A stretch of 64,000 nt of DNA from a virus. The notes beneath the pieces were generated by a model, which searched no databases, was not told the origin of the DNA, and saw only the letters and a list, made by a program, of their open reading frames with translations. Position numbers and translations under genes: made by a program. The DNA is taken from IMG/VR virus record IMGVR_UViG_3300045988_055837; one strand, 5' to 3'. Positions 22,421 to 23,664 of this stretch are shown here, one piece after another. Position 1 is the first letter of the stretch; each line of letters begins with the position of its first letter.

Positions 22421-22453
22421 ATTTGGCAAAGTTGTTAAATCAACTTTGCCAAA
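22421..22453. other. Perfect palindrome TTGGCAAAGTTG-TTAAAT-CAACTTTGCCAA. Terminator and/or recombinase or regulator site.
   Basis: 12-bp arms seen in sequence between the fibre-assembly gene and the serine recombinase. TTGGCAAA recurs twice at 23563-23590. Confidence 0.4.
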
Positions 22454-22480
22454 TTTTCATTATATAATGAGGTGATAAAG

Positions 22481-23086
22481 GTGTTATATGGATATGCAAG
22501 GGTTTCATCAAGAGATCAAAATCTAGACCGATAGATTATTGCATTAACCGATGCAGGCGTAGATAGAGATAATATCTTCGTCGATAAACAATCAGGTAAG
22601 GATTTCAATCGTCCAGCATACTAGGATTTAGTGAGTACGATTCAGCCAAATGATATGATTATTATTAAAAGCATTGATAGATTAGGTCGTAATTACTCAG
22701 AGATTCTAGAACAATGGGGTTTAATTACCAAGACTAAGAAAGTAGATATTAAAGTATTAGATATGCCATTATTAGACACGTCATATTGTAAAGACGTTAT
22801 GGGCACATTTATCTCTGATCTTGTCTTATAGGTATTATCCTTTTAGGCTGAACAAGAGAGAACCTATATTAAACAACGGTAGGCTGAAGGACTCGCGGCC
22901 GCCAAGTCTAATGGCGTCTAGTTTGGTAGACCAAGGAAACCTCTTCCCTCGAATTTCGAGGAACTATATCAGCGTTTCCGTAAGAATGAACCAATTACTA
23001 GACTCGCGAAAGAATGTCCAGAAATCTCAGAATCTACATTACGGCTCCGCTTATAGGAGAGATTTGATTTGGACAGAAAAAGATAA
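22481..23086 (+). CDS. Small serine recombinase of the Hin/Gin/Cin/resolvase family, about 201 aa, with 7 in-frame TAG
   Basis: GTG start after ribosome-binding site gaggtga. N-terminal [14 protein letters not shown] catalytic-serine motif. [13 protein letters not shown]-terminal helix-turn-helix. Stops at TAA 23084-23086. Confidence 0.7.
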
Positions 23087-23135
23087 TCAATCTTCCTTTT
23101 GTTTGATATATTATATACAATAAGGAGGAATTATT

Positions 23136-23519
23136 ATGCCAGAAATTGTGATTCAGATTATCCAGGTATGTGTTATTCCTTTGCTCGGTATTTTGACTAA
23201 ATATCTCGTTGACTACTTGACTGCTAAGCGCAATGAGATTAACTCTAAGACCGATAATGAGACTGCTCAGAAGTACACTAATATGATTTATCAGACTGTT
23301 GTTGATTGCGTTATTGCAACCAATCAAACTTATGTAGATAGCTTGAAGAAATCTGGAAGCTTCGATGAAGCAGCTCAGAAGGAAGCATTTAACCGCACAA
23401 TGAACGCTATTATGACTATTCTAAGTGACGATGCTAAGGAATATATTACCGAGGCTACAGGTGACTTGAATACTTATCTCACTCAGTTAATTGAGGCTGA
23501 GGTTAATAAGCGCAAATAA
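23136..23519 (+). CDS. Putative holin of 127 aa: one N-terminal transmembrane helix plus a hydrophilic C-terminus (LL-H-like architecture)
   Basis: N-terminal transmembrane helix VIQIIQVCVIPLLGILTKYLV. Ribosome-binding site aaggagg. Terminator follows. Confidence 0.3.
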   Translation: MPEIVIQIIQVCVIPLLGILTKYLVDYLTAKRNEINSKTDNETAQKYTNMIYQTVVDCVIATNQTYVDSLKKSGSFDEAAQKEAFNRTMNAIMTILSDDAKEYITEATGDLNTYLTQLIEAEVNKRK

Positions 23520-23526
23520 CAAGAAA

Positions 23527-23560
23527 AAGGGAGCCTATTAGGCTCCCTATATTTTTTTTC
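23527..23560 (+). terminator. Rho-independent terminator gggagcc-tatta-ggctccc followed by T8
   Basis: Seen in sequence. Confidence 0.55.
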
Positions 23561-23664
23561 AAAAAAATTGGCAAAATTTTTGGCAAAAATGTAAAATCGT
23601 CCATAGACGATTTTCATATACTAATGAAAGGTCAAAGGAAATATTTTTTAGGAGGTAAAAAATT

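Follow-up and report, generated by a model that had tools for sequence, protein, structure and literature searches.

Does a serine recombinase gene that adjoins fibre-like genes in a phage genome flip a fibre segment, as the invertases of Mu and P1 do, or does its product resolve genome multimers, and is the palindrome immediately in front of the gene its site of action or a transcription signal? We have addressed this question for IMG/VR virus record IMGVR_UViG_3300045988_055837, of which the whole stretch analysed, 64,000 nucleotides long, is referred to below as the window; its source is predicted to be a gut phage with a large genome of ~140 kb, virulent in appearance, whose host is a low-GC Gram-positive bacterium. 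The gene concerned is the following.

22481..23086, + strand: small serine recombinase gene, 201 aa, GTG start, TAA stop; matches PF00239 and phrog_125

The main value of our analysis is a corrected annotation: judged by sequence and by a modelled fold, the gene encodes a resolvase-type recombinase that implies no host-range switch and can be read only with TAG as glutamine. What is most unusual about it is the heavy recoding of a recombinase gene, together with a natural series of gain, loss and deletion of the locus.

In the standard code, the open reading frame (ORF) would be interrupted seven times, and it is open only if TAG is read as glutamine (in-frame TAGs at 22532, 22622, 22829, 22844, 22883, 22922 and 23054, the first of which is codon 18). 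The original prediction, which had reported a 201-aa serine recombinase here, tacitly read TAG in this way (as in 'LDRQ', with one TAG inside the peptide that it quoted); the frame is indeed present with seven TAGs as glutamine, and its translation matches PF00239 (Resolvase) over residues 3-146 with an E value of 1.4e-28. The alignment of orthologues confirms the reading, as all seven TAGs fall on CAA/CAG columns when the codons are aligned with those of orthologues of five further clades, orthologues devoid of TAG carry CAA or CAG at these places, and conserved LDRQ and RQRQAEG positions of the family are among the recoded sites. At 3.4 TAGs per 100 codons, i.e. half of its glutamine codons, the recombinase gene is among the most TAG-dense of the window, comparable to the genes for a RuvC-like resolvase, the Avd-like protein and reverse transcriptase of a diversity-generating retroelement (DGR) and a GIY-YIG homing endonuclease. 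Its orthologues contain zero (L047, L049, L025), three (L051), four (L204) or, in the window, seven TAGs, and this graded rise within one orthologous gene provides a small natural series for studying how recoding spreads.

The gene is not a pseudogene, since the whole window is written in a code in which TAG is sense. Coverage by ORFs of at least 100 aa rises from 63.4 to 96.1 kb once TAG is counted as a sense codon, and the called genes contain 146 in-frame TAGs versus 690 CAA/CAG codons. This use (seen, for example, at 1806-14195, 16146-18291, 27101-27580 and 48426-49343) is uneven: TAG is frequent in the structural block and the DGR genes as well as in the genes for the RuvC-like protein (7 TAGs) and the GIY-YIG homing endonuclease (12 TAGs), and most replication genes at 30-56 kb have none. 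Contigs that bear orthologues of the recombinase cluster at 137-148 kb, and the window therefore represents less than half of a genome; a tRNA search of these 64 kb found none, hence no suppressor tRNA(CUA) within this part of a ~140-kb genome. Among TAG-recoded phages, a suppressor tRNA is detectable in only 40% (Borges et al., bioRxiv 10.1101/2021.08.26.457843).

From its sequence record, the recombinase is a working-looking, selected enzyme under strong purifying selection. Between clades, the codon alignment gives a pN of 0.08-0.21 with synonymous sites saturated and a dN/dS below 0.1, and the catalytic residues are nearly invariant among 121 sequences, i.e. 120 retrieved homologues and the window protein: 115 have R7, 119 have S9, 119 have E124, 120 have R67, and all 121 have D66 and R70. 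The exceptions are deletion chimeras (see below), one R7C lineage and protein P0064. As a separate observation, L025/L026 and protein P0014 (40 member sequences) have YACVSS in place of YARVSS, which changes the catalytic arginine to cysteine in a gene that is otherwise intact; this variant may be inactive or solely DNA-binding.

The family placement of the protein differs from its previous Hin/Gin-family label. It does match phrog_125 (E 6e-51), a PHROG family named 'DNA invertase', and no NCBIfam family scored above its cut-off. When ranked by sequence against solved structures, however, the protein is closest to Sin (2r0q, 9e-33), to which its YARVSS and SIDRLGR stretches align, followed by gamma-delta (6e-22) and Tn3 (~1e-21) resolvases, with Gin far behind (2e-16). 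The fold was assessed with the AlphaFold model of an 87%-identical orthologue, P0003 (predicted local distance difference test, pLDDT, 85.8), standing in for the window protein. This model features a catalytic domain, an E-helix and a three-helix C-terminal domain of the helix-turn-helix (HTH) type (helices 106-143, 159-167, 172-177 and 184-200) and matches the Sin, gamma-delta and Tn3 resolvases over the full length with E values of ~1e-12 (~1.5e-12 for Sin and gamma-delta), compared with 7e-6 for Gin; against gamma-delta (1gdt), the template-modelling (TM) scores are 0.64/0.69. Large serine integrases are remote fold matches only (E > 4e-3), phrog_95 (an integrase family) covers just the catalytic domain, and the large C-terminal recombinase and zinc-ribbon domains of the phage serine integrases (400-700 aa) are absent from this 201-aa protein. 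Thus, by sequence and model, the protein has what defines a small serine recombinase, i.e. a catalytic domain with a serine nucleophile, an E-helix and a C-terminal HTH domain, and is of the Sin/resolvase type, which makes 'Hin/Gin-family' a mislabel.

Where such an enzyme might act depends on the non-coding DNA around the gene, in which the following elements can be distinguished.

22404..22480, + strand: 'up' leader, collinear with the 'down' leader, preceding the recombinase-holin unit
22411-22418: box H1 of the 'up' leader, degenerate TTACCAAA
22418..22457, not assigned to a strand: perfect palindrome with 17-nt arms (22418-22434 and 22441-22457) and a 6-nt spacer, TTAAAT
22423-22430: box H2 of the 'up' leader, TTGGCAAA
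22435-22440: -10-like hexamer of the 'up' leader, TTAAAT
22445-22452: inverted box H3 of the 'up' leader
22470-22476: Shine-Dalgarno sequence GAGGTGA of the 'up' leader, preceded by TTTTCAT-TATATAAT
23561..23647, + strand: 'down' leader, homologous to the 'up' leader, in front of the operon starting at 23665
23592-23597: -10-like hexamer of the 'down' leader, TAAAAT
23593-23614: small hairpin of the 'down' leader, followed by TTTTCATATACTAATGAAAGG

The palindrome had been recognized in the original prediction, and it is real and perfect; its coordinates were off by one, and its arms are longer than had been stated. Its core dyad (12+6+12) spans the 30 bp from 22423 to 22452 and ends 29 bp 5' of the recombinase start codon, and its RNA would fold with -22.3 kcal/mol (z = -6.8). 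It is a candidate for an operator or crossover site and/or for a bidirectional intrinsic terminator of the fibre operon. Across clades, the outer TTGGCAA is conserved and the inner bases vary; two arm substitutions occur in relatives, both of which keep G-U pairing. Covariation of the half-site with the HTH was tried and is uninformative, because the recognition helix (SESTLRLRL) hardly varies. The two direct half-sites that had been described downstream are equally real: TTGGCAAAA occurs at 23568 and 23580, 12 bp apart.

These boxes belong to a pair of leaders. The 'up' and 'down' leaders are collinear homologues of ~85 nt with 74% identity, arranged in direct orientation and sharing one layout, i.e. 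H1, H2 (TTGGCAAA) 12 bp further on, TG-T-AAAT(C), ~11 nt and ATTTTCAT-ATA-TAATGA-AGG. The 'up' copy has an extra inverted box, H3, and it is this box that makes the sequence around the -10-like TTAAAT palindromic; the hairpin at the corresponding position of the 'down' copy is unrelated to it. A profile search with nhmmer found just these two copies in the 64 kb (E 3e-18 and 8e-18). The 'up' leader is nearly invariant in 24 close relatives; in diverged clades, it is rearranged and still recognizable. Exact TTGGCAAA occurs eight times in the window versus 2.67 times expected (none of 100 shuffles reached eight), with four occurrences in the two leader regions and the other four as single copies within coding sequence. 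A search of 22300-23750 against Rfam gave nothing at the gathering score and only weak matches to terminator-like small RNAs. Two further probes of viral contigs were discarded: the 14-mer arm ATTTGGCAAAGTTG was too unspecific, and the tandem-box pattern mostly retrieved coding sequence for AAA+ ATPases (..GVGKT.LAKQLAKE..) without any link to a recombinase.

The history of the locus involves the neighbouring genes.

20370-21797, + strand: dockerin-containing fibre-like gene (dockerin, phrog_16641)
~21806-22408, + strand: DUF4376 gene (DUF4376, phrog_1348)
23136..23519, + strand: holin gene, 127 aa, no TAG (phrog_13712, E 4.5e-34)
23528..23559, + strand: G+C-rich intrinsic terminator of the recombinase-holin unit (9-bp stem with 6 GC pairs, T-run, -17.5 kcal/mol)
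23665..26591, + strand: accessory operon of six ORFs, including 24077-24310, behind the 'down' leader and ending at a convergent terminator, 26548-26591

All genes between 20.4 and 26.6 kb lie on the + strand. The holin gene starts 49 nt past the recombinase stop codon, and this order is constant in recombinase-bearing relatives; the two genes are probably co-transcribed. That the recombinase gene directly follows fibre genes holds for its position; with respect to their identity, the tail-fibre-type signals of the fibre-like and DUF4376 genes are weak. Among INPHARED annotated phage records there is no close relative, only short pieces of 68-81% identity. In the relatives found as contigs, synteny is kept down to 72% recombinase identity, with a gene order of DGR target, fibre, small ORF, recombinase, holin and accessory operon, followed by RuvC and dUTPase genes on the opposite strand. 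When loci were anchored on the holin, all 36 with a holin identity of at least ~59% carried the recombinase; among deeper relatives (holin 54-60% identical, contigs of 115-195 kb), it was found within 3 kb in none of 42, and a 43rd recombinase-less locus, L466, is truncated at its start, which precludes scoring. In the recombinase-less relatives, neither an intergenic element nor an 'up' leader separates the holin gene from the tail gene before it, which it directly adjoins. Thus, the recombinase was gained by one sub-lineage, between the tail-fibre genes and the holin gene; moreover, since the recombinase-less relatives have the 'down' leader only, this leader is ancestral and the 'up' leader a duplicate that arrived with the recombinase.

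Losses are equally instructive. The top database matches of the recombinase are chimeras, in which fibre N-termini of varied length are fused in frame to the recombinase at varied points (P0001, P0002, P0006, P0007; P0004 has another N-terminus). These reflect real deletions because the DNA is contiguous across the junctions, and several independent ones, many of them with in-frame fusions, can be followed in related near-complete genomes (L030, L045, L046; interval 20369-22825). The junctions lie at differing positions in microhomologies of 3-10 nt (TGCAARGGTT, ATTAA and, in L030, TTA), and an origin of the chimeras as spliced predictions or site-specific products was rejected on both grounds. 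Several deletions take out Ser9/Ser10 plus the entire 'up' leader, and none reaches the holin gene or crosses the divergent promoter at 20.3 kb. These genomes can thus do without the recombinase, the palindrome, the DUF4376 gene and the C-terminus of the fibre, all of which natural deletions remove; the high frequency of hits on the fibre-recombinase interval may reflect a detection bias. Both genes in front of the recombinase are also mosaic among relatives, strongly so in the case of the dockerin fibre-like gene (20432-21770; L002-L022), its central and C-terminal part being swapped for unrelated sequence in otherwise ~95%-identical relatives, and L025/L026 are devoid of both this gene and the DUF4376 gene. 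Cassette exchange driven by the recombinase was considered as a cause and rejected: the breakpoints vary from one relative to the next and thus point to homologous exchange, not to a site-specific one.

We tentatively favour, at rather less than even probability, an accessory resolvase with one site per genome copy whose dyad doubles as its operator; this is the fallback that the original prediction had offered, and of all readings it agrees best with the data. Such an enzyme would recombine copies of a single site per genome, for which the 30-bp dyad at 22423-22452, around the -10-like hexamer of the gene's own leader, would be the best candidate; binding there would also repress transcription of recombinase and holin, as with Tn3, gamma-delta and Sin at res, and two site copies on multimeric circular replication products would be recombined to yield monomers. 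The TTGGCAAA boxes would then be the repeated boxes of two paralogous promoter/operator leaders. We infer both that the recombinase binds the dyad and that multimer resolution is its reaction. A dyad directly 5' of the gene is in the canonical res position (Tn3, gamma-delta, Sin) and was therefore counted in favour of a recombinase site. A scan of viral contigs for the strict dyad or for the relaxed form TTGGCAAA-N14-TTTGCCAA gave exactly one occurrence in the contig of each of 25 relatives, of which five measure 138-148 kb; this fits what a resolution system needs, i.e. one site per replicon. Dyads of the TTGG..CCAA type of ~30 bp are present in the leaders of at least 32 of the 36 recombinase-bearing loci versus ~0 of 43 recombinase-less ones, and the recombinase locus lies ~4 kb from the maximum of the cumulative GC skew. 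The family placement, the maintained catalytic residues, the natural deletions that mark the gene as accessory, the seven TAGs, which argue against a role as an integrase, and the absence of a prophage copy (see below) provide additional support.

Several observations, however, weigh against an accessory resolvase. There are only three half-sites, within 42 bp, compared with the 86 bp of a Sin res, and the same boxes also build the 'down' leader of an unrelated operon. This leader is kept in recognizable form before the same operon in recombinase-less relatives, as a TTGGACAAA box ... AATTTTCA-ATA-TAATGAAG. The genome's bona fide terminators are likewise long, perfect, A/T-flanked palindromes (that at 26548-26591, for instance, has perfect arms of 18 nt); since these are alike, and since substitutions in the dyad keep G-U pairs, the dyad may simply be a terminator. 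Once the motif filter is dropped, clade-specific dyads emerge in 35 of 42 recombinase-less leaders too; phylogeny and the choice of motif therefore confound the association of dyad and recombinase. Dyads of ~30 bp are found in both leaders of the L204 clade, the clean one being that of the 'down' leader, not one upstream of the recombinase. Recombinant junctions between 'up' and 'down' leaders were not found in metagenome contigs, in a search without a positive control. Lytic phages that package concatemers have no obvious need for multimer resolution. Finally, the GC-skew peak near the locus coincides with a switch in gene orientation, i.e. the +/- convergence at terminator 26548-26591.

A nearly equal rival is the view that transcription alone is served by the palindrome and the TTGGCAAA boxes (as -35-like elements, operators for another phage regulator and the fibre terminator) and that the recombinase does not bind them and has its substrate elsewhere, a view to which we give a probability of somewhat more than one in three. 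Two paralogous leaders do precede two operons, and TTGGCA-18-TAAAAT in the 'down' leader is the best sigma-70-like match of the region (10/12), with the box-18-hexamer layout repeating in relatives (TCGACA/TTTAAT, TTGCCA/TAGAAT, TTGGCA/TAAAAT). The recombinase-less genomes not only keep the 'down' leader; some have box types of their own in it, such as the CGGTCC repeats of L497, and dyads of other sequence are common in these leaders. The long, perfect, A/T-flanked terminator palindromes and the G-U-preserving arm substitutions point in the same direction. The original prediction had named boxes at promoter spacing elsewhere as the sign of a transcription-factor motif, and this is largely what was found, i.e. 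two leaders with fixed spacing ahead of two transcription units; since the 'down' leader exists without an adjacent recombinase, a role of the boxes as transcription signals is no less likely than one as recombination half-sites. Yet, the TTGG..CCAA dyad of 30 bp tracks the recombinase across at least five diverged subclades, and its outer motifs are spaced by 23 bp, which would be uncommon for a simple HTH repressor and, to go by gamma-delta site I, is typical of serine-recombinase sites. Moreover, a promoter scan gave no overall excess (16 matches versus 20.2 expected), and the leader element is present only twice in 64 kb, with the tandem box once per ~140-kb relative; with so few copies, it is not a general promoter motif. 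A combination of both functions seems improbable to us: a late, code-gated protein, made only after the phage has switched the cell to TAG=Gln, would bind the TTGGCAAA boxes of both leaders, thereby controlling holin, accessory operon and lysis timing, and would also resolve dimers at a dif-like, terminus-proximal dyad of a circularly replicating ~140-kb virulent phage.

The remaining alternatives give the recombinase different substrates. A Hin/Gin-like invertase that flips a fibre or host-range segment, either adjacent in some isomers or within the ~75 kb outside of the window, is suggested by the fibre-like genes next door, their high mosaicism among relatives and the PHROG name; as more than half of the genome lies outside of the window, a degenerate site pair could be located there. 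Known phage invertases, however, adjoin their invertible segment, and the protein is nearer to the resolvases in sequence and fold. A search for inverted repeats at 14-30 kb and in the whole window revealed no credible dispersed pair, only local hairpins and chance-level pairs, and there are no inverted fibre exons or duplicates in the 64 kb, as the original prediction had already noted. Inversion of the region was seen in none of ~28 close, 8 diverged and 36 holin-anchored relatives (more than 60 in all), which are all collinear. With a single dyad per contig, even in contigs of 138-148 kb, and mosaic boundaries in the fibre gene that differ as expected for homologous exchange, the Mu/P1-style fibre-flipping role that had been invoked as a model does not apply to what is seen here, and we consider it very unlikely. 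In the Hin/Gin/Cin/Pin invertases, the 5' part of the recombinase gene contains a Fis-dependent recombinational enhancer, and Fis is not known from the predicted low-GC Gram-positive host lineage. Slightly less probable still is an integrase/excisionase or a maintenance resolvase of a plasmid-prophage, with the palindrome as attP or res. Small serine recombinases do count among phage integrases, and a dyad beside the gene recalls the position of an attP. Yet, no prophage copy of the recombinase exists in 185,579 bacterial and archaeal species (one genome each), where the best bacterial homologue, from Clostridia and Coriobacteriia, is just 64% identical, and in 25 of 25 viral contigs the dyad is intact and unsplit, with phage DNA on both sides. 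The in-frame TAGs, starting at codon 18, would block expression in a standard-code cell, and recoded prophages keep in-frame recoded stops out of their integrase genes (Borges et al., bioRxiv 10.1101/2021.08.26.457843). In addition, the window encodes a complete lytic-type replisome, and its larger annotated genes include no repressor or partition gene. We give as little credence to the idea that the leaders are direct-repeat sites for excision or mobilization of a recombinase-holin cassette, or to its variant in which the TAG-dense ORF gates holin expression. The ~85-bp direct repeats bracket exactly these two genes, the recombinase is present in some lineages and absent from others, the L204 clade has its dyads in both leaders and, with regard to gating, the holin gene has zero TAGs and the ORF just 5' of it has seven. 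However, no relative is excised at the repeats (recombinase-less genomes have no 'up' leader, and their holin gene abuts a tail gene), the predicted circle and scar junctions of an 'up' x 'down' recombination had zero matches in 241 M metagenome records, searched without a positive control, the 'down' copy in the window has no inverted half-site, and the central dinucleotides of the L204 clade dyads differ between the leaders (TA versus AA). Loss of the holin would be lethal, and TAG-free recombinase orthologues argue against a gate.

If the accessory-resolvase reading is true, some large virulent gut phages carry a dedicated module for site-specific multimer resolution, and their recombinase is a counter-example to recombinases of recoded phages keeping the standard code. 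If the protein has the dual function outlined above, it would represent a resolvase-based analogue of XerCD/dif or Cre/lox, which is undescribed for virulent phages. The natural deletions and the comparison of gain and loss constitute ready-made genetics for the role of the gene, and the pair of ~85-bp leaders is a compact candidate for studying late and lysis gene regulation in uncultured recoded phages.

The surroundings of the locus have several features of their own. The accessory operon (23665-26572) has genes for a protein rich in Pro, Tyr and Gln, a membrane protein of 286 aa rich in Gly and Cys (phrog_16490), a protein of 140 aa (phrog_20016), an acidic protein rich in His, Tyr and Pro and, in its last ORF, an M78/ImmA-like peptidase. 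L018 has lost the entire operon via a GTCAA microhomology and L020 a part of it; in L051, part of it is replaced, with an HNH gene present. On the other side of the fibre-like gene, a complete DGR extends from 16146 to 20292 on the - strand, with 15 of its 15 repeat mismatches at template adenines.

16146-17411, - strand: DGR reverse transcriptase gene (YMDD; PF00078 in relatives)
17662-17764, - strand: DGR template repeat
17797-18291, - strand: DGR Avd-like gene
18373-20292, - strand: DGR target gene (Big_3/DUF6273), with the variable repeat at its 3' end
18390-18492, - strand: DGR variable repeat

The cumulative GC skew of the window, with positive skew at 1-15 kb and negative skew at 27-64 kb, peaks at ~24-27 kb, which may be the replication terminus of a bidirectionally replicating ~140-kb genome. 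A perfect 36-bp palindrome without a spacer (TAAGAGAAAGAATGGGTA/TACCCATTCTTTCTCTTA) at 51407-51442 lies mostly in the 342-nt gap between a ligase-like and a topoisomerase-II-like gene, with its last three bases overlapping the stop codon of the latter, and may function as origin, operator or terminator. An odd cargo in the phage replication region is a gene for a 210-aa membrane protein (29015-29647, - strand), the orthologues of which in relatives match the formate/nitrite transporter family PF01226.

Among known systems, the Sin/resH system of staphylococcal plasmids (PDB 2r0q), along with beta-recombinase/six, is the closest to the window recombinase, being both its best sequence match and its top fold match. 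The two share their architecture (catalytic domain, E-helix, C-terminal HTH), the same catalytic residues, a low-GC Gram-positive host lineage and a ~30-bp dyad directly 5' of the gene along with head-to-tail boxes, which recall the site I and direct-repeat site II of Sin. The Sin res of 86 bp consists of site I (the crossover dyad), an HU site and site II (a direct repeat), and Sin bound at such a site represses its own promoter. In contrast, the present locus has its three half-sites in 42 bp rather than an 86-bp resH with an HU/IHF spacer, and its head-to-tail pair H1-H2, 12 bp apart, overlaps the dyad, which does not match the Sin layout. Further differences are that the TTGGCAA box is unrelated to the Sin site, that a second leader copy serves an unrelated operon, that TAG is glutamine and that the gene resides in a phage genome rather than on a plasmid or transposon. 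With Tn3 and gamma-delta, the recombinase shares the fold and the location of the putative site 5' of the gene, overlapping its promoter; in both of these systems this overlap of resolvase site and promoter gives autorepression, and the res of Tn3 has six half-sites. The Tn3/gamma-delta res is described as three dimer sites over 114 bp (PMC2602789), and the window locus has nothing comparable. The invertases Gin (Mu), Cin (P1), Hin and Pin are also small serine recombinases of similar size, with the phage-encoded ones situated beside tail-fibre genes, but similarity to them is far weaker, and the present locus has no inverted site pair, invertible segment or alternative fibre exons; orientation isomers are absent from its relatives. 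Cre/lox of P1 and XerCD/dif offer a functional analogy only, i.e. one site per genome, here near the GC-skew maximum; they are tyrosine recombinases, and a corresponding role in the phage studied here would be by analogy. Finally, like the recoded gut phages of Borges et al., this phage is TAG-recoded, chiefly in its structural and late genes, and has a heavily recoded homing endonuclease gene; in contrast to the integrases of their recoded prophages, which are free of recoded stops, its recombinase is among its most TAG-dense genes.

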